Source of the DNA: a phage
Sequence record: PZ862964.1
Length of the DNA stretch: 64,000 nucleotides
Reading direction: 5' to 3' (one strand)
Shown piece after piece: positions 8,087 to 17,095 of this stretch. Position 1 is the stretch's first letter. Every line of letters begins with the position of its first letter. Made by a program: the position numbers and the translations under genes. The notes under the pieces were generated by a model. It made no database searches. It worked only from the letters and a program-made list of their open reading frames with translations, and was not told the DNA's origin.

Positions 8087-8090
8087 GTTG

Positions 8091-8120
8091 AGGACTCCTT
8101 CGGGAGTCCTTTTTTATTTT
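8091..8120 (+). terminator. Rho-independent terminator
   Basis: Hairpin aggactcc-ttcg-ggagtcct (8091-8110) followed by tttttatttt. Confidence 0.8.
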
Positions 8121-8196: not shown

Positions 8197-8529
8197 ATGA
8201 AAACGATTAATCTGAACTCTACAGTTAAAACTAAATGTTTCAATGGTAAATATAATGAAACTATGTGGTTCTTAATGGCAGTTGAAGGTGATATTATTGA
8301 AGTAGAAACAACAGAAGGTATGGGAACAGATTTCACCTTTACAATTCAAGTTCATAATTTCTTTACTGGTTGGATTTATGAATTGAATACAATAATCGTT
8401 GGAAAAATTGAACAAAATGAATTAGGCGAATGGCATTATGTTACAGCTCGCCAACGTGCCGAACGCTTAATTGAGAAGATGAAAAAAGTTGGTAAACTTG
8501 ACATGCAGCATTGGAAAGTAGTAAAATAA
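8197..8529 (+). CDS. Hypothetical early protein
   Basis: 110-aa ORF with dedicated promoter and strong RBS. Confidence 0.6.
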   Translation: MKTINLNSTVKTKCFNGKYNETMWFLMAVEGDIIEVETTEGMGTDFTFTIQVHNFFTGWIYELNTIIVGKIEQNELGEWHYVTARQRAERLIEKMKKVGKLDMQHWKVVK

Positions 8530-8531
8530 TT

Positions 8532-8571
8532 GTTTACTTTGGTACAAGATATGATATTATATACTTGTACC
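8532..8571 (+). promoter_or_regulatory. Early promoter stem-loop cassette (PeSL-like)
   Basis: gtttac (8532-8537), 17-nt spacer, tattat (8555-8560); inverted repeat ggtacaag (8541-8548) / cttgtacc (8564-8571) flanking -10; RBS ggag then ATG 8597. Confidence 0.6.
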
Positions 8572-8596
8572 GCAATTAAACATCTTGGAGAATAAA

Positions 8597-8962
8597 ATGA
8601 ACTACATTAACTTTGAACGTAAATATGTTTCTAATGGTATTGCAGGTTCTATTGATACCATCTGCCTTTGGAAACATCAAAATGGATCAGTATGCGAAAT
8701 TGAACAATATATGACTCCTAATTACGTTTATATGCGATTTGAAAACGGTATCACGGTTTCAATCACGATGGAAGGTTCCAACTTCAAAATCGCTCTGGAT
8801 GATGATTTCCGTCAACGCGATTTAGGGACTCATCCTTGCTGGAATGGCGTTAATCGCAAGCTTTTGGTTAAAACTTGGATTCGTCATATTCTGAGTAACA
8901 GAGCTAAACCTGAGCATCTTGAAGCAATCTTTGATGTAGTTCTTAATGAATTTGATATTTAA
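8597..8962 (+). CDS. Hypothetical early protein
   Basis: ATG 8597 after RBS ggag; ORF-track start 8585 is a TTG extension. Confidence 0.6.
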   Translation: MNYINFERKYVSNGIAGSIDTICLWKHQNGSVCEIEQYMTPNYVYMRFENGITVSITMEGSNFKIALDDDFRQRDLGTHPCWNGVNRKLLVKTWIRHILSNRAKPEHLEAIFDVVLNEFDI

Positions 8963-8971
8963 AATAAAATG

Positions 8972-8985
8972 GGGGCTTCGGCCCC
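8972..8985 (+). terminator. GC-rich tetraloop hairpin (terminator or RNA stability element)
   Basis: ggggc-ttcg-gcccc directly after the 8597-8962 ORF; no clear U-run. Confidence 0.4.
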
Positions 8986-9002
8986 TTACTGAGGAAAATA
9001 TT

Positions 9003-9290
9003 ATGTTTATGACTACTTATTTTGATACCCGCAAAAATTTCTGCGAAGTGGTTTTCTCAAAGGCGCCTAAAGACCTTCCTGCTCATTTGCAGCCTACCAG
9101 TGAATCGATTAAAAACTACGTTGATGTGGTTTGTCCTTTAGAGTTCCGTACTGTAAATGGGCGCGATACTTTAGCTATCACTAAACTCAATCGCGAAATT
9201 GACATTGACCCTTCAATTGCGCGTGAAATTAACATTTCTGATATTGGCGGCGGTAATGTTAAATCGCACGGTTTTCAGATGAGGTTCTAA
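9003..9290 (+). CDS. Hypothetical early protein
   Basis: ATG 9003 after RBS gagga (8991-8995); ORF-track start 8946 is upstream extension through the hairpin. Confidence 0.55.
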   Translation: MFMTTYFDTRKNFCEVVFSKAPKDLPAHLQPTSESIKNYVDVVCPLEFRTVNGRDTLAITKLNREIDIDPSIAREINISDIGGGNVKSHGFQMRF

Positions 9291-9487
9291 TGAAATTCTT
9301 TTTAGGTCAAACTGTTGAATTAAAGGGAGTTGGTATACCTGGATTAATTTCTAAGGTTCTACCTCCATTTAAATGGAGTGGTATTCAAATAAAAGAGGCT
9401 TATATTGTTTCCTGGGTAGATGGAAATGAAGACCTTCGTATGGGTGATGAATTATCTCCTATTTACGGATTAAAGGAATTAGTATGA
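9290..9487 (+). CDS. Hypothetical small protein
   Basis: 65-aa ORF, TAATG overlap with upstream gene. Confidence 0.5.
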   Translation: MKFFLGQTVELKGVGIPGLISKVLPPFKWSGIQIKEAYIVSWVDGNEDLRMGDELSPIYGLKELV

Positions 9488-9690
9488 ATATAATTAATAA
9501 GATTTTTGGAATTCAGTACATTAAGGTCACATATAAAGTAACAGATAAAAATCCATATACTGATGAACATGAAGAACCACAAGTTGAGTCTATTATATTA
9601 GAAAAGGACCCTAACTGGCCAGTTGAATTTCGTCTTCCTTGCTATGGTCATTGGGCTGATGTTGAAATTATAAGCATTGAAAATGTCTGA
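9484..9690 (+). CDS. Hypothetical small protein
   Basis: 68-aa ORF, ATGA overlap with upstream gene. Confidence 0.5.
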   Translation: MNIINKIFGIQYIKVTYKVTDKNPYTDEHEEPQVESIILEKDPNWPVEFRLPCYGHWADVEIISIENV

Positions 9691-10141
9691 GTTAGAGATT
9701 AGAAGCAATTTTAGATGGCCATCATGTGCATTAAGTAATTTCGCCCATTGGCCTTTCGTTATGGATGGTATTCAATTTGGAGGTCTCGAAGGATTCCTTC
9801 AAGGGTGTAAGGTGAAAAATGTTGAACAACAACGTCGTATATTTGGGTTATCCGGTCTTGCCGCCCAACAAGCTGGAAGGTCTTATGCAAGAGCTCAGGA
9901 CCGTGGGACCCTCTTCTGGCTTGGAGTTCCGTTTTCAAGATACTCCCCAGCGTGGAAAGAATTATACACAAATGCATATTTTGAAGCAGCGATCCAAAAC
10001 AGGGGCTTTCGTGATGCATTACAAGCCTCGAAAGGAAAAGTTTTGAAGCACAGCATGGCTAGTGGTCTAACAAAAGATGATACAATACTAACCGAAGCTG
10101 AATTTATTGATGTGTTAAACCTATTAAGAGACTCTCTATGA
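9683..10141 (+). CDS. NADAR (YbiA/DUF1768-like) domain protein, putative ADP-ribose-processing enzyme
   Basis: 152 aa from ATG 9683; motif LSNFAHWPFVMDGIQFGGLEGFLQGCK resembles the YbiA/NADAR core (SNFaaWP...DG...E.yFQ..K) as I recall it. Motif-level call only. Confidence 0.55.
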   Translation: MSELEIRSNFRWPSCALSNFAHWPFVMDGIQFGGLEGFLQGCKVKNVEQQRRIFGLSGLAAQQAGRSYARAQDRGTLFWLGVPFSRYSPAWKELYTNAYFEAAIQNRGFRDALQASKGKVLKHSMASGLTKDDTILTEAEFIDVLNLLRDSL

Positions 10142-10974
10142 AGCCTACTATTTTAACTGATATTGATGGAGTATGTTTAAGCTGGCAATCAGGCCTTCCT
10201 TATTTTGCTCAGAAATATAATCTTCCGTTAGAACATATTTTAAAAATGATCCAGGATGAGAAATTTATTTCTCCTGGTAAACTCTTTAACTGTGATGAAG
10301 AACTTGGCGTCAAGTTAATTGAAAAATACAATCGATCAGATTTTATTCGTTACTTGTCTCCATATAAAGATGCTCTGTGTGTAATTAACAAATTAAAAGA
10401 AGATTATAATTTTGTAGCTGTTACAGCATTGGGTGATTCTATTGACGCTCTGTTGAATCGCCAATTTAATTTGAATGCTCTTTTTCCTGGTGCCTTCTCA
10501 GAAGTAATGATGTGTGGTCATGATTCTTCAAAAGAAGAGTTGTTCAAAAAGGCAAAAGAGAAATATAACGTAATTTGTTATATTGACGATCTCGCTCACC
10601 ACTGCGATCATGCGAGTGAAATATTACGTGTTCCTGTGTATTGGATGGCTCGAGGGGAACGTGACAGTATTCCAAAAACCGCTCAGCGAGTTTATACATG
10701 GAACGATGTAGAGAATAAGCTTTTTTCACCGAAGGAAAATAAAGAAAGTTTTGATAGTGAAAAAGCTATAAAAGATGTAATTGAAAAGATGATTAAAAAT
10801 GATTCTTTTCGTTGGAACACTACCTGGAGAACTCCTGGATTTAATCCTTATAATCCATATCATCCATATCAGACGCATCCGTTTCAGACATGGAACTATA
10901 TTAAACCCGGTGGTATAGAGTATTTGTATAATAGACCTACTAGTGGTGATAATATTTTCCAAGGAGCATTCTAA
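10138..10974 (+). CDS. HAD-superfamily 5'(3')-nucleotidase-like protein with Pro/aromatic-rich C-terminal tail
   Basis: 278 aa; N-terminal ILTDIDGV (HAD DxDG motif); C-terminal NPYNPYHPYQTHPFQTW low-complexity segment. Confidence 0.55.
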   Translation: MKPTILTDIDGVCLSWQSGLPYFAQKYNLPLEHILKMIQDEKFISPGKLFNCDEELGVKLIEKYNRSDFIRYLSPYKDALCVINKLKEDYNFVAVTALGDSIDALLNRQFNLNALFPGAFSEVMMCGHDSSKEELFKKAKEKYNVICYIDDLAHHCDHASEILRVPVYWMARGERDSIPKTAQRVYTWNDVENKLFSPKENKESFDSEKAIKDVIEKMIKNDSFRWNTTWRTPGFNPYNPYHPYQTHPFQTWNYIKPGGIEYLYNRPTSGDNIFQGAF

Positions 10975-11243
10975 TGTTTGTTGTTCACACTATTTATGAA
11001 AATGAAGGTAATACTACACGTGATTACGGTCACGTAAATCAATTTTTTAGATGCAATCCAGAATTCCGAGCTCAAAAAGACGAACGAATTTTTAAAAAAT
11101 GTGTAGAGCAAGGTTTCATTTACGTCAAGCATTGGATGCAAGGAAATAAAGTTAGAACCACGTACCATAGGTCTTTGACTGAGCTTAATGATGAATTGAT
11201 TTATAATAGAGCTGTAAACCAAACTCTAAAGGATGAACAATGA
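10974..11243 (+). CDS. Hypothetical small protein
   Basis: 89-aa ORF immediately upstream of DNA ligase, overlapping junctions. Confidence 0.5.
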   Translation: MFVVHTIYENEGNTTRDYGHVNQFFRCNPEFRAQKDERIFKKCVEQGFIYVKHWMQGNKVRTTYHRSLTELNDELIYNRAVNQTLKDEQ

Positions 11244-12703
11244 TTCTTAAAATTCTGAACGAAATAGCATCTATTGGTTCAACTAAGCAGAAGCAAGCAA
11301 TTCTTGAAAAGAATAAAGATAATGAATTGCTCAAACGAGTATATCGTCTGACTTATTCTCGTGGGTTACAGTATTATATAAAGAAATGGCCTAAACCCGG
11401 TATTGCTACCCAGAGTTTTGGGATGCTGACTATTACCGATATGCTCGATTTTATTGAATTCACGTTAGCTACTCGGAAATTAACTGGAAATGCAGCAATT
11501 GAGGAATTAATCGGATATATCACCGATGGTAAAAAAGATGATGTTGAAGTATTACGTCGAGTAATGATGCGAGACCTTGAATGTGGTGCTTCTGTATCTA
11601 TTGCAAACAAAGTTTGGCCAGGTTTAATTCCTGAACAACCTCAAATGCTCGCAAGTTCTTATGATGAAAAAGGCATTAGTAAGAATATCAAATTTCCAGC
11701 CTTTGCCCAGTTAAAAGCTGATGGAGCTCGGTGTTTTGCTGAAGTTAGAGGTGATGAATTAGATGATGTTCGTCTTTTATCACGAGCTGGTAATGAATAT
11801 CTAGGATTAGATCTTCTTAAAGAAGAGTTAATCAAAATGACCGCTGAAGCCCGCCAGATTCATCCAGAAGGTGTGTTAATTGATGGCGAATTGGTATACC
11901 ATGAGCAAGTTAAAAAGGAGCCAGAAGGCCTAGATTTTCTTTTTGATGCTTATCCTGAAATTAGTAAAGCTAAAGAGTTTGCTGAAGTAGCTGAATCACG
12001 TACTACTTCTAATGGAATCGCTAATAAATCTTTAAAGGGAACTATTTCAGAAAAAGAAGCTCAATGCATGAAGTTTCAGGTCTGGGATTATGTTCCGTTG
12101 GTAGAAATATACGGTCTTCCAGCATTTCGTTTAAAATATGATGTACGTTTTTCTAAATTAGAACAAATGACATCAGGATATGATAAAGTAATTTTAATTG
12201 AAAACCAAGTAGTAAATAACCTAGATGAAGCTAAGGTAATTTATAAAAAGTATATTGACCAAGGTCTTGAAGGTATTATTCTCAAAAATATTGATGGATT
12301 ATGGGAAAATGCTCGTTCAAAAAATCTCTATAAATTTAAAGAAGTAATTGATGTTGATTTAAAAATTGTAGGAATTTATCCTCACCGTAAAGACCCTACT
12401 AAAGCAGGTGGATTTATTCTTGAGTCAGAGTGTGGAAAAATTAAGGTAAATGCTGGTTCAGGCTTAAAAGATAAAGCCGGCGTAAAATCACATGAACTTG
12501 ACCGTACTCGCATTATGGAAAACCAAAATTATTATATTGGAAAAATTCTAGAGTGCGAATGCAACGGTTGGTTAAAATCCGATGGCCGCACTGATTACGT
12601 TAAATTATTTCTTCCGATTGCGATTCGTTTACGCGAAGATAAAACTAAAGCTAATACGTTCGAAGATGTATTTGGTGATTTTCATGAGGTAACTGGTTTA
12701 TGA
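11240..12703 (+). CDS. 30: ATP-dependent DNA ligase (gp30)
   Basis: 487 aa; MILKILNEIASIGSTKQKQAILEKNKDNELLKRVYRLTYSRGLQYYIKKWPKPG... matches T4 DNA ligase as recalled, with adenylation-lysine context FAQLKADGARC. Confidence 0.97.
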   Translation: MILKILNEIASIGSTKQKQAILEKNKDNELLKRVYRLTYSRGLQYYIKKWPKPGIATQSFGMLTITDMLDFIEFTLATRKLTGNAAIEELIGYITDGKKDDVEVLRRVMMRDLECGASVSIANKVWPGLIPEQPQMLASSYDEKGISKNIKFPAFAQLKADGARCFAEVRGDELDDVRLLSRAGNEYLGLDLLKEELIKMTAEARQIHPEGVLIDGELVYHEQVKKEPEGLDFLFDAYPEISKAKEFAEVAESRTTSNGIANKSLKGTISEKEAQCMKFQVWDYVPLVEIYGLPAFRLKYDVRFSKLEQMTSGYDKVILIENQVVNNLDEAKVIYKKYIDQGLEGIILKNIDGLWENARSKNLYKFKEVIDVDLKIVGIYPHRKDPTKAGGFILESECGKIKVNAGSGLKDKAGVKSHELDRTRIMENQNYYIGKILECECNGWLKSDGRTDYVKLFLPIAIRLREDKTKANTFEDVFGDFHEVTGL

Positions 12704-12910: not shown

Positions 12911-12940
12911 ATAAATAGAATAAACACTAGAGAGGATATG

Positions 12941-15034
12941 ATGGAACTCATTACAGAATTATTTGACGAAGATACTACTCTTCCGATTACAAACTTAAAT
13001 CCAAAGAAGAAAATACCACAAATTTTTTCAGTTCATGTTGATGATGCAATTGAACAACCAGGCTTTCGTTTATGTACCTATACGTCTGGAGGTGATACTA
13101 ATCGTGATTTAAAGATGGGCGATAAAATGATGCATATTGTTCCTTTTACATTAACTGCTAAAGGTTCAATTGCTAAATTAAAAGGTCTTGGTCCAAGCCC
13201 AATTAATTATATCAATTCAGTTTTTACTGTTGCAATGCAAACAATGCGTCAGTATAAAATTGATGCTTGTATGCTCCGTATTCTTAAGTCTAAAACTGCT
13301 GGTCAAGCTAGACAAATTCAAGTTATTGCTGATAGACTTATCCGTAGTCGTTCAGGTGGCAGATACGTCCTTCTTAAGGAACTCTGGGATTACGATAAAA
13401 AGTATGCATATATTCTTATACATCGCAAAAATGTATCACTAGAAGACATTCCAGGAGTTCCGGAAATTAGTACCGAGCTCTTTACTAAAGTTGAATCGAA
13501 GGTCGGTGATGTTTATATCAATAAAGATACTGGAGCTCAAGTAACTAAAAATGAGGCAATTGCAGCATCTATTGCACAAGAAAATGATAAACGTTCTGAC
13601 CAAGCTGTAATCGTTAAAGTTAAAATTTCCCGTAGAGCAATTGCGCAAAGTCAATCGTTAGAGTCTTCTAGATTTGAAAGTGAATTATTCCAGAAGTATG
13701 AATCTACAGCAGCTAATTTTAATAAACCTGCTACCGCTCCTTTAATTCCCGAAGCAGAAGAAATGAAGCTTGGAATTAATTCATTAGCTTCTAAAACCAA
13801 GGCAGCAAAAATTATTGCCGAAGGAACTGCAGATGAACTTCATTATGACTATAAATTCTTTTCAAAAAGTGAGGTTAATGAAGTTTCTGAAAAAATTAAA
13901 GATGTAATTCTTAATGCGATTAAAAATGAACCAACTACTTCAATAAAATGTTTAGAGAAATACGCAGCAGCTGTTAATCAACTCTTTGAAGAATATAAAG
14001 ATAATTGGCTTGATAAACATAATAAAACTCGTAAAGGGCAGCCAGATGAAGTCTGGGAAGAAATGACTAAAAATTCCTGGAACGCAGCAAAAACTAAATT
14101 CCTCAAAAGAATGATTTATAGTTTTTCTGGAATTGGTGCAGGTCCAATGATTGATATTACTATTGCCCGTGATGGTTCTAAATATACTCCATCACAAAAG
14201 CGCGGCATTAGAGAGTATTGTGGTTCAGGATATACTGACATCAATAATCTTCTTTTAGGTCGTTACAATCCAGAACGATATGATGTAATGAGTGAAAAAG
14301 AAATTGAATCTGCTATAACTAATTTAGATTCAGCTTTTGAAAATGGTGACCGCATACCGGAAGGCATTACAGTTTATCGTGCTCAAAGTATGACTGCTCC
14401 TATATACGAAGCGCTAGTTAAAAATAAAGTGTTCTACTTCAGAAATTTTGTATCTACTTCTTTAACTCCTATCATTTTTGGACGTTTTGGAATTACACAT
14501 GCTGGTATTGGTCTTTTAGAACCAGAATCTCGCAATGAATTAACAGTTGATAAAAATGAAGAAGGAATAACTATTAATCCAAACGAAATAAGAGCGTATA
14601 AAGAAAATCCTGAATACGTTAAAGTTCAAATAGGATGGGCAATTGATGGAGCTCATAAAGTTAATGTTGTATATCCAGGAAGTCTCGGAATAGCAACAGA
14701 AGCTGAAGTTATTCTACCGCGTGGATTGATGGTCAAAGTTAATAAAATAACTGATGCTTCTAATAATGACGGAACAACATCTAATAATACAAAACTCATT
14801 CAAGCTGAAGTTATGACCACGGAAGAGCTCACCGAATCGGTAATCTATGATGGAGACCATTTAATGGAAACTGGTGAATTGGTTGCAATGACAGGTGATA
14901 TTGAAATAGAAGACAGAGTTGACTTTGCATCATTTGTTTCATCAAATGTTAAACAGAAAGTAGAATCATCTCTTGGAATTATTGCGTCTTGCATAGATAT
15001 TACAAACATGCCTTACAAGTTCGTTCAAGGATAA
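12941..15034 (+). CDS. alt: Alt-type ADP-ribosyltransferase (virion-packaged, injected)
   Basis: ~697 aa; N-terminus MELITELFDEDTTLPITNLNPKKKIPQIF as in T4 Alt (recalled); R-S-E ART motif elements (YRAQ, FVSTSL, EAEVILPRG). Confidence 0.85.
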   Translation: MELITELFDEDTTLPITNLNPKKKIPQIFSVHVDDAIEQPGFRLCTYTSGGDTNRDLKMGDKMMHIVPFTLTAKGSIAKLKGLGPSPINYINSVFTVAMQTMRQYKIDACMLRILKSKTAGQARQIQVIADRLIRSRSGGRYVLLKELWDYDKKYAYILIHRKNVSLEDIPGVPEISTELFTKVESKVGDVYINKDTGAQVTKNEAIAASIAQENDKRSDQAVIVKVKISRRAIAQSQSLESSRFESELFQKYESTAANFNKPATAPLIPEAEEMKLGINSLASKTKAAKIIAEGTADELHYDYKFFSKSEVNEVSEKIKDVILNAIKNEPTTSIKCLEKYAAAVNQLFEEYKDNWLDKHNKTRKGQPDEVWEEMTKNSWNAAKTKFLKRMIYSFSGIGAGPMIDITIARDGSKYTPSQKRGIREYCGSGYTDINNLLLGRYNPERYDVMSEKEIESAITNLDSAFENGDRIPEGITVYRAQSMTAPIYEALVKNKVFYFRNFVSTSLTPIIFGRFGITHAGIGLLEPESRNELTVDKNEEGITINPNEIRAYKENPEYVKVQIGWAIDGAHKVNVVYPGSLGIATEAEVILPRGLMVKVNKITDASNNDGTTSNNTKLIQAEVMTTEELTESVIYDGDHLMETGELVAMTGDIEIEDRVDFASFVSSNVKQKVESSLGIIASCIDITNMPYKFVQG

Positions 15035-15037
15035 ATC

Positions 15038-17095
15038 ATGGAACTTATTACAGAATTATTTGACGGCGCTTCGGCGCCGGTTGTTAACTTAAATCCTAAG
15101 CATAAAATACCTCAAATTTTTGCTATTCAAGCCGGTGAAGAAAGTGTGCTTCCTGGATTTAGATTTTGTACATACACCTCTGGTGGTGATACAAATAAAA
15201 ACGTTAAGCCAGGCGATAAAATGATGCATATCGTAATGATAGGTGTCAACGAGAAATTATCGCTGGTTAAGCTTAGAAACTTGGGTGGAAATCCAATTGG
15301 CGTCATTAATGCTGTTTTTGATACTGCTCTTCAAACAATGAAGCAGTACAAAATTGACGCGTGCTTATTCCGTGTACTAAAGAGTAAAACAAATGGCGCA
15401 GCTCGTCAAATGCAAGTTATTGCTGACCGTTTAGTACGTACTAAAGGAGCAGGTCGATATGTTCTTTTAAAGGAAATCTGGGACTATGATAAAAAGTATG
15501 CATATATTATGGTTTACCGTAAAAATGCCAATTTAGAAGACATTCCAGGTGTACCTCCTATTTCAACTGAGTTATTCACAAAAGTTGAATCAAAGGTTGG
15601 TGATGTTTATGTAGACGTTAAAACAGGTAATGCTGTTCCTAAAGCTGTCGCTGTTGCTGCTTCTATTGCTTTAGAAAATGATAAGCGCACTGATCAAGCT
15701 GTTATTCAGAAAACTAAAATTAGTCGTCGATTAGCAGCACAAGCTCAATATTCTACTGTTGATGCTTCACTTCAGGGCGATAGCTTCGCTGCCAAGAAAT
15801 ATCAAGAGTTTGAATCTAAAGTTCCGGTATATAAAGCAGAAGGACCAATGAACTCTGGCGTTATCCAGATTGGTTCAAACTTCAGCAAAGGAGCTATCGG
15901 TGGTATGAGAAGTGCTTCTCGTTTTAAATCTAATGATTATGAACTAGAAAGTTTCCGAAATCATATTGCATTAGCTCATGCACGTTTACGCGATCCATCT
16001 ATCAAGCTGCAGAGCGATATAACATATCAAGGTTCTCAAGAATATTTAAAGAATAAAGAATTTTTTGATTATAAAACTGATAAAATTTTAAGCGATCTTG
16101 CTGACATTAATATTTCTAATAGCTTTGATGTTATTAAGAAAATTATCAATGATTTAGTTAAAGGTTCTAAAGCTACATCAGATGAAAAGACAGCTATTAT
16201 TCAATTTGTAATGAATGGCATTTATAAATTGATTAATGAATCTGCTGCTCAGGCATATGAATACGCAAGCACCGAAGTAACTCCAAAAGGATTAACTCAA
16301 GCTGAATCTGATGTAATTGAAGATTATTGTGCAGATTCATATGTTGAAATGAACTCGTTCCTTTTGGGTAAACCAGATTCTACCCGTGAAGAATATATGG
16401 AACGAGCTATTAAACATATTGAGACGCTGGATTCTGCATTCGCCAAAGGATCAGTTCTTCCTCCAGGAACTACACTTTACCGTGGACAAGAAGTTACCTT
16501 TAAAACTTTGCGTCATAACATTGAAAATAAAATGTTCTATTTCAAGAACTTCGTATCGACATCACTTAAACCAAATATCTTCGGTGAGCATGGTAAAAAC
16601 TATATGGCTCTAGATGATTCCGGCGCAGTATTTTCTGGCGAAGGAGAAGGTTCCGTTGATGCAGAAGATTTAATGCATATGGGTAGTCATTCTACATATG
16701 CCAATGAAGATGCTGAAACTAGCGTGGGTATGGTAATTAAAGGAGCTGAGCGAATCAAAGTTATCGTTCCAGGTCATTTATCAGGATTTCCATCAGAAGC
16801 TGAAGTTATTCTACCGCGTGGAATTTTACTGAAGATTAATAAAGTAAGTACGTACTTTATGAAAGAAACTGCTTATAACAAGTATCTAATCGAAGGTACA
16901 ATCGTTCCTCCTTCTGAACAATTAGAAGAATCAGTATATGATGGAGACCATCTAATGGAAACTGGTGAAGTTCGTCCAATGGCTGGATTTAATCAATTCC
17001 TTGTAGAAGAATCAAAAGAAGAGGAAAACGAAGTTTCTCAAATCTTAGCTTCTTTGGTTAACATCAACGGAATGTCTAAAAAGTTCAAGATGTAG
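15038..17095 (+). CDS. Alt paralog, second ADP-ribosyltransferase
   Basis: 685 aa; N-terminal ~220 aa and C-terminal ART region clearly paralogous to the upstream alt (MELITELFD..., YKIDAC..., FVSTSLKP, EAEVILPRG, ESVYDGDHLMETGE); central region divergent. Confidence 0.8.
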   Translation: MELITELFDGASAPVVNLNPKHKIPQIFAIQAGEESVLPGFRFCTYTSGGDTNKNVKPGDKMMHIVMIGVNEKLSLVKLRNLGGNPIGVINAVFDTALQTMKQYKIDACLFRVLKSKTNGAARQMQVIADRLVRTKGAGRYVLLKEIWDYDKKYAYIMVYRKNANLEDIPGVPPISTELFTKVESKVGDVYVDVKTGNAVPKAVAVAASIALENDKRTDQAVIQKTKISRRLAAQAQYSTVDASLQGDSFAAKKYQEFESKVPVYKAEGPMNSGVIQIGSNFSKGAIGGMRSASRFKSNDYELESFRNHIALAHARLRDPSIKLQSDITYQGSQEYLKNKEFFDYKTDKILSDLADINISNSFDVIKKIINDLVKGSKATSDEKTAIIQFVMNGIYKLINESAAQAYEYASTEVTPKGLTQAESDVIEDYCADSYVEMNSFLLGKPDSTREEYMERAIKHIETLDSAFAKGSVLPPGTTLYRGQEVTFKTLRHNIENKMFYFKNFVSTSLKPNIFGEHGKNYMALDDSGAVFSGEGEGSVDAEDLMHMGSHSTYANEDAETSVGMVIKGAERIKVIVPGHLSGFPSEAEVILPRGILLKINKVSTYFMKETAYNKYLIEGTIVPPSEQLEESVYDGDHLMETGEVRPMAGFNQFLVEESKEEENEVSQILASLVNINGMSKKFKM

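Follow-up and report, generated by a model that had tools for sequence, protein, structure and literature searches.

The open reading frame (ORF) at 9683..10141 of the window, by which is meant the entire 64,000-nt stretch of phage DNA analyzed (PZ862964.1), is very probably adfN, encoding a guanine-ADP-ribose DNA glycohydrolase that would counter DarT1 damage to phage DNA. Both the activity and the phenotype against DarTG1 are transferred from experiments on the 98%-identical protein of phage T4, the product of gene 30.3. The counter-defence function of gene 30.3 is already published and the window leaves that published picture unchanged. The main value of the result is one of annotation: a "hypothetical protein" can be named adfN and given a predicted phenotype, resistance to DarTG1-type abortive defence.

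Results and Discussion

The window carries a full-length copy of T4 gene 30.3

The ORF runs on the + strand from the ATG at 9683 to the TGA stop codon at 10139-10141 and encodes 152 aa. A mechanically generated list of ORFs began at an upstream TTG (9677, two codons 5′), giving 154 aa; the ATG at 9683 was chosen as the start, as annotated in T4. The coordinates, length and motif reported in the preliminary description were correct for this ORF. The product was identical to T4T gp30.3 at 149 of 152 residues (98%) and equal in length, the substitutions relative to the T4 protein being Q22H, K107R and I125M, of which H22 (Q in T4) adjoins the SNFA motif. At the nucleotide level the gene differed from T4 30.3 by 8 synonymous and 3 non-synonymous changes. 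We infer that the three substitutions leave the function unchanged. A chance ORF was excluded because the product matched PF08010 (Phage_30_3) with an E of 1.7e-69 (232.4 bits against a gathering cut-off of 36, with the full profile 1-138 covered), because of the 98% identity to the T4 protein and the 8 synonymous to 3 non-synonymous changes, and because homologues were detected by tblastn in 1511 of 50,697 phage records. Judged by sequence, the ORF is an intact, full-length copy of T4 gene 30.3 (adfN). It is annotated here as a full-length NADAR-superfamily ADP-ribosylglycohydrolase (activity predicted) from the ORF itself, the PF08010 match, synteny and the AlphaFold2 and PDB matches described below.

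A 2.3-kb stretch around the ORF matched 666 phage records, the best being Escherichia phage vB-Eco-KMB23 (99.1%), and was 97.8% identical to T4 at the nucleotide level and collinear with T4T, the + strand of the window corresponding to the minus strand of T4. As in T4, the gene is flanked by 30.4 and 30.2 and precedes the ligase gene, and the surrounding order was also that of T4: rIII, 30.9, 30.8, 30.7, 30.6, 30.5, 30.4, 30.3, 30.2, 30.1, 30 (DNA ligase), alt.1, alt. From these comparisons the phage is assigned to Tequatrovirus (T4-like).

A scan for promoters and terminators, in which total site counts were not above those in shuffled sequence, returned only one strong promoter-like site, a near-consensus sigma-70-type TTGACA-18-TAAAAT (11/12) at 8498-8527 upstream of 30.7. 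A hairpin followed by a T-run was found after 30.9 (8090-8111). Between the promoter-like site and 13000, where the scan stopped ~300 bp beyond the ligase gene, there was no terminator-like site. This layout is consistent with a single early transcription unit spanning 30.7 to the ligase gene, adfN included. Scans of the whole 64-kb window detected neither tRNA genes nor Rfam families at gathering score.

The overlapping ORF 30.3′ (9819-10046, +1 frame, 75 aa), which is annotated in T4, was considered as a conserved second gene and rejected. In five divergent homologues the +1 frame stayed open over 66-126 codons, and shuffles of synonymous codons matched this (P 0.05-0.44), so that its openness was not above that of the shuffles.

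Family profiles and the predicted fold place the protein in the NADAR superfamily

The preliminary description had recognized a NADAR (YbiA-like) domain in the product. Searches with the single query sequence came close to contradicting that reading: PF08719 (NADAR) gave no match in the Pfam search even at E<=1, and single-sequence phmmer against the PDB found nothing relevant. Because these searches were empty, the NADAR link could be shown only with profiles of the family and a structure model. A database search gave 94 homologues, several of which, ~40% identical, had been named YbiA/DUF1768 family by JGI. Conservation was counted in an alignment of 78 full-length family members, and 33 of these 78 matched PF08719, with a best E of 1.5e-7. 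The family HMM reached E. coli YbiA (2b3w) at E 0.011, aligned across the SNFA...DG...E..FQ..K motif, and hhalign of the family against YbiA gave a probability of 93.5% (E 2.2e-7, 90 columns). The profile evidence was thus negative for the single sequence and positive for the family.

The AlphaFold2 model generated from the alignment was confident (pLDDT 93.9, pTM 0.89). When it was compared with the PDB by Foldseek, the top three matches were solved NADAR structures, 2b3w, 8bau and 8bat, each with a probability of at least 0.99, and all other matches had probabilities of 0.06 or less. The structure 8bau is the Phytophthora NADAR (PnNADAR) with ADP-ribose, and 8bat is the DarG1-type NADAR of Geobacter lovleyi. 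The NADAR fold is therefore present in the model, with YbiA as the best PDB match and Glu36 in place, and the YbiA-like assignment made in the preliminary description is correct. The protein belongs to the NADAR superfamily as a member of the PF08010 branch, without a direct PF08719 match.

Catalytic residues and the C-terminal helix are retained

The NADAR core motif, LSNFAHWPFVMDGIQFGGLEGFLQGCK (residues 17-43; 9731..9811, + strand), was aligned to FSNFAAWPIKVDGKTWPTSEHYFQAQKF of YbiA by both hmmsearch and hhalign. Both the catalytic Glu and the Lys of the E-x-x-[FL]-Q-x-x-K motif are present in the window protein. The catalytic Glu36 (codon 9788..9790, + strand) was invariant in the 78 homologues and aligned with E48 of YbiA; its counterpart in the Phytophthora NADAR is E43, which binds the distal ribose (PMC11543638). 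Lys43 (codon 9809..9811, + strand), a phosphate/adenine contact, was conserved in at least 90% of the homologues and aligned with K55 of YbiA, and its equivalent in the E. coli C7 NADAR, K95, is essential (PMC11543638). Besides E36, the residues P13, L17, S18, N19, F20, F25, G37, F38, Q40, Q50, A61, H123, L136 and T137 were invariant among the 78.

In the NADAR mechanism the distal ribose is bound by the Glu and the phosphates by the Lys; the last strand supplies a third catalytic residue (PMC11543638). At this last-strand position YbiA-type NADARs have Glu, DarT1-associated NADARs have Asp and the phage gp30.3 group has His (PMC11125620, PMC11543638). In the window protein the residue is His123 (codon 10049..10051, + strand), located in the last beta-strand of the model (strand 120-123) and marking the phage gp30.3 branch. 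The hhalign alignment ended at K122, paired with V124 of YbiA, which places H123 in register with YbiA E125. The Asp of the DarG1 type (D171 in the E. coli C7 NADAR) is absent, His123 being found at that position.

The C-terminal part of the protein (residues 138-152; 10094..10138, + strand) was modeled as a helix spanning residues 138-151. This helix is missing from the inactive allele of phage RB69, and C-terminal truncation lowers AdfN activity (PMC11825919).

Function transferred from the T4 protein

The preliminary description had proposed, as one of two options, a role against host ADP-ribosylating (DarT-type) defence. For the 98%-identical T4 orthologue this role has been demonstrated experimentally. 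Johannesman et al. (Nat Commun 2025, PMC11825919) identified gene 30.3 as the source of DarTG1 resistance in T-even phages and renamed it adfN (anti-DarT factor NADAR), showing resistance through gene 30.3 genetically for both T4 and T2. T4 lacking adfN was sensitive to DarTG1, and ectopic adfN rescued RB69 (PMC11825919). Purified T4 AdfN removed ADP-ribose from DarT1-modified DNA and the E36A mutant did not; E36A thus impaired the protein in vivo and in vitro, and both E36A and K43A were impaired mutants that kept partial activity in vivo (PMC11825919). Phage gp30.3 cleaved guanine-ADPr, not thymidine-ADPr, in vitro (PMC11125620). Against DarTG2, whose target is thymidine, T4 AdfN was without effect, and it showed no interaction with DarT1 in a two-hybrid assay (PMC11825919). 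In an independent transposon screen of T4 (bioRxiv 10.1101/2025.11.20.689424), insertions in 30.3 were lost on DarTG1 hosts (Data S6; log2FC -7.25, padj 0).

By this precedent, adfN of the window phage would be an early-expressed, stand-alone NADAR-superfamily enzyme. Host DarT1, of the DarTG1 system, would place ADP-ribose on the N2 amino group of guanine in phage DNA and so block replication. AdfN would then hydrolyze the N-glycosidic bond of guanine-ADP-ribose, releasing ADP-ribose and restoring normal guanine, and phage DNA repaired in this way would be able to replicate.

As YbiA is the best structural match, AdfN might instead act like this housekeeping enzyme, mainly degrading soluble ADP-ribose-derived molecules (immune signals or NAD breakdown products) or intermediates of the riboflavin pathway in place of DNA adducts; one distant homologue was also found ~6 kb from a PRPP-synthetase-like gene. 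We gave such an activity almost no credence. The T4 orthologue was directly shown to de-ADP-ribosylate DNA and is required specifically against DarTG1, His replaces the YbiA-type Glu in 78 of 78 family members, and the phage group is phylogenetically nearest to the DarT1-associated NADARs (PMC11825919).

Repair of guanine in phage DNA is the preferred reading, but the enzyme alone does not fully explain the mechanism in vivo, because T4 AdfN did not rescue uninfected cells from DarT1 toxicity and rescued the unrelated phages T5 and Bas25 weakly (PMC11825919, PMC11125620), and because of the residual activity of the E36A and K43A mutants. The failure in uninfected cells and the weak rescue of unrelated phages led the authors to propose that full activity of AdfN(T4) requires a further T-even factor (PMC11825919).

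Proximity to alt probably reflects T-even gene order

Two Alt-type ADP-ribosyltransferase genes, both intact and matching PF03496, lie on the same strand as adfN at 12938-15034 (698 aa) and 15038-17095 (685 aa), 2.8-7.0 kb from the ORF, in agreement with the two downstream genes noted in the preliminary description. Alt modifies protein side chains. From this neighborhood, the preliminary description had also suggested that the enzyme could tune ADP-ribosylation driven by the phage's own Alt. More broadly, AdfN might be an eraser of the phage's own ADP-ribosylation, by the two Alt enzymes or by ModA/ModB, acting on host proteins or nucleic acids and situated near alt for that reason. Co-expression of T4-like NADARs with ADP-ribosyltransferases (ARTs) had been suggested earlier (PMC9503650).

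Apart from the two intact paralogues downstream on the same strand, the evidence was against such a link, and we consider an eraser of this kind highly improbable. Homologues of 37-41% identity had no ART or Alt homologue within +-8 kb, and proximity was kept only where the whole T-even block was syntenic, as in a metagenomic relative (58% AdfN identity) in which the block is complete, with ligase and alt. Insertions in alt were neutral on DarTG1 hosts in the T4 transposon screen (log2FC -0.01; 10.1101/2025.11.20.689424). The T4 enzyme and the other NADARs tested cleave guanine-ADPr, not thymidine-ADPr, and an Alt-related phenotype of 30.3 was not found in the cited literature. The functional link between Alt and adfN was rejected on the synteny and transposon-screen data, and with it the proposed tuning of Alt-driven modification, which found no support. 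Genes alt and adfN appear to lie close together because T-even phages inherited this gene order, and not as a functional pair that has been conserved.

The alt locus itself differs from that of T4. Only remnants of the second alt copy, alt.-1 and alt.-2, are kept in T4, and these match the N-terminus of the window's second Alt at 96-97% identity. The first Alt of the window was 70% identical to T4 Alt, with flanking genes at ~98%, which suggests allele replacement or fast divergence at this locus.

Genes 30.4 and 30.2 as candidate partners

The gene immediately upstream of adfN, 30.4 (68 aa; 9484..9690, + strand), is probably its partner in translational coupling. The end of 30.4, stop codon included, shares 8 nt with the beginning of adfN, and direct reading of the 20 nt before ATG 9683 revealed nothing resembling a Shine-Dalgarno sequence. 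In the T4 transposon screen, the DarTG1 sheet listed exactly two significant genes genome-wide, 30.3 and 30.4, the latter with a log2FC of -1.79 (padj 0.014); the effect of 30.4 is absent from the discussion in the main text of that paper (10.1101/2025.11.20.689424). Insertions in 30.2 (log2FC -0.12), adfA/61.2 (-0.34), 30.6 and 30.7 were neutral on DarTG1 (10.1101/2025.11.20.689424).

Because of the 8-nt overlap and the lack of a Shine-Dalgarno-like sequence in those 20 nt, loss of translational coupling between 30.4 and adfN is the simplest explanation for the depletion of 30.4. Simple transcriptional polarity is argued against by the neutrality of the 30.6 and 30.7 insertions. The depletion of 30.4 probably reflects disturbed expression of adfN, through loss of coupling or polarity, and this is likelier than a partner role. 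That gp30.4 is the T-even-specific factor needed for full activity of AdfN(T4) is accordingly considered unlikely. The 30.4 homologue of RB69, in which ectopic AdfN(T4) is fully active (PMC11825919), was 51% identical to that of the window, a value that fits the partner and coupling readings alike.

Downstream, the adfN stop overlaps the start of gene 30.2 in an ATGA (10138..10141, + strand). Gene 30.2 (10138-10974, + strand) encodes 278 aa beginning with a HAD-phosphatase-like motif, TDIDGV, and is labelled HAD-like hydrolase or putative phosphatase in a few GenBank records. On account of the ATGA overlap and the DIDGV motif, gp30.2 was considered as a partner of AdfN and rejected. It had no significant family or structure match (no Pfam family, and a non-significant match to 5′(3′)-deoxyribonucleotidase, E 1.4), no homologue of it was found within 8 kb on either side of the 37-41%-identical AdfN homologues, and its insertions were neutral on DarTG1.

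Distribution and natural disruption of adfN

The tblastn matches were mostly to Straboviridae of Escherichia, Klebsiella, Shigella, Aeromonas, Acinetobacter and Vibrio, and among the matches listed nearly all records labelled the product "hypothetical protein". A protein 100% identical to that of the window is encoded by PV654520.1 ("Pseudomonas phage vB_PSGBLB0006", host P. aeruginosa, 142 kb). This host label looks odd for a Tequatrovirus-type gene and may be due to contamination or mislabelling.

Broken alleles also occur in nature. In some, the N-terminus of gp30.7, gp30.8 or gp30.4 is fused in frame to the C-terminal half of AdfN by deletions that remove the catalytic motif. Others have frameshifts between the 30.3 and 30.3′ frames, or N-terminal truncations without the catalytic motif, as in phage SV76. 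Because natural T4-like phages carry such disrupted alleles, adfN appears to have been lost repeatedly.

The RB69 gp30.3 was 94% identical to the window protein and ended at residue 137. The RB69 allele is inactive (PMC11825919), owing to a frameshift that removes the last 15 residues. When RB69 (118000-136000; Mosigvirus) was compared with 8197-12703 of the window, gp30.7, gp30.6 and gp30.3 were 94-95% identical, and lower identities were obtained for gp30.8 (40%), gp30.4 (51%), gp30.1 (56%), the ligase (63%) and gp30.2 (67%). This mosaic conservation suggests that T-even genera have recently exchanged short segments, adfN among them.

For phage therapy and host-range work, an intact adfN predicts that a T4-like phage will plate on DarTG1-carrying E. 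coli, and naturally truncated or fused adfN alleles predict sensitivity to DarTG1.

Comparison with known systems

The E. coli protein YbiA (2b3w), the type member of PF08719, was the best structural match to AdfN (E 3.5e-5, TM 0.66) and has the SNFa-WP...DG...E..FQ..K motif in common with it. The two proteins differ in overall sequence, with identity of about 18-24%, and in the last strand, where Glu125 of YbiA corresponds to His123 of AdfN. Unlike phage adfN, ybiA is a chromosomal gene and is tied to an N-glycosidase activity on riboflavin intermediates and to swarming (PMC11125620).

DarG1, the antitoxin of DarTG1 (E. coli C7; Geobacter lovleyi 8bat; Schuller et al., Mol Cell 2023), has the same fold, 8bat being the third-best PDB match (probability 0.99), and also the Glu/Lys catalytic pair and the guanine-ADP-ribose chemistry, the latter for AdfN from the T4 protein. 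However, adfN of the window is an orphan with no adjoining DarT toxin gene: none of the seven flanking products (30.8, 30.7, 30.6, 30.5, 30.4, 30.2, 30.1) belonged to a DarT/ART family, and the sole ARTs near adfN were the Alt-type PF03496 genes, at least 2.8 kb distant. AdfN further differs from DarG1 in its last-strand residue (His in place of Asp) and its length (152 against about 219 aa), and in uninfected cells the T4 protein is no substitute for DarG1 (PMC11825919, PMC11125620).

AdfN(Bas32) and AdfN(Bas60), from T5-like phages and Vequintavirinae, are likewise phage orphan NADARs that counter DarTG1 by de-ADP-ribosylation of guanine (PMC11825919). They differ in belonging to other NADAR branches, in having been acquired independently and in being active without any T-even factor, including in uninfected cells (PMC11825919).

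The closest counterpart is AdfN(T4), gp30.3 (PMC11825919; PF08010), which the window protein resembles in its 98% identity, length, position and neighbors, in residues E36, K43 and H123 and in the C-terminal helix. The differences are the three substitutions in the protein and, in the surrounding genome, the second intact alt paralogue that the window phage has and T4 has lost.
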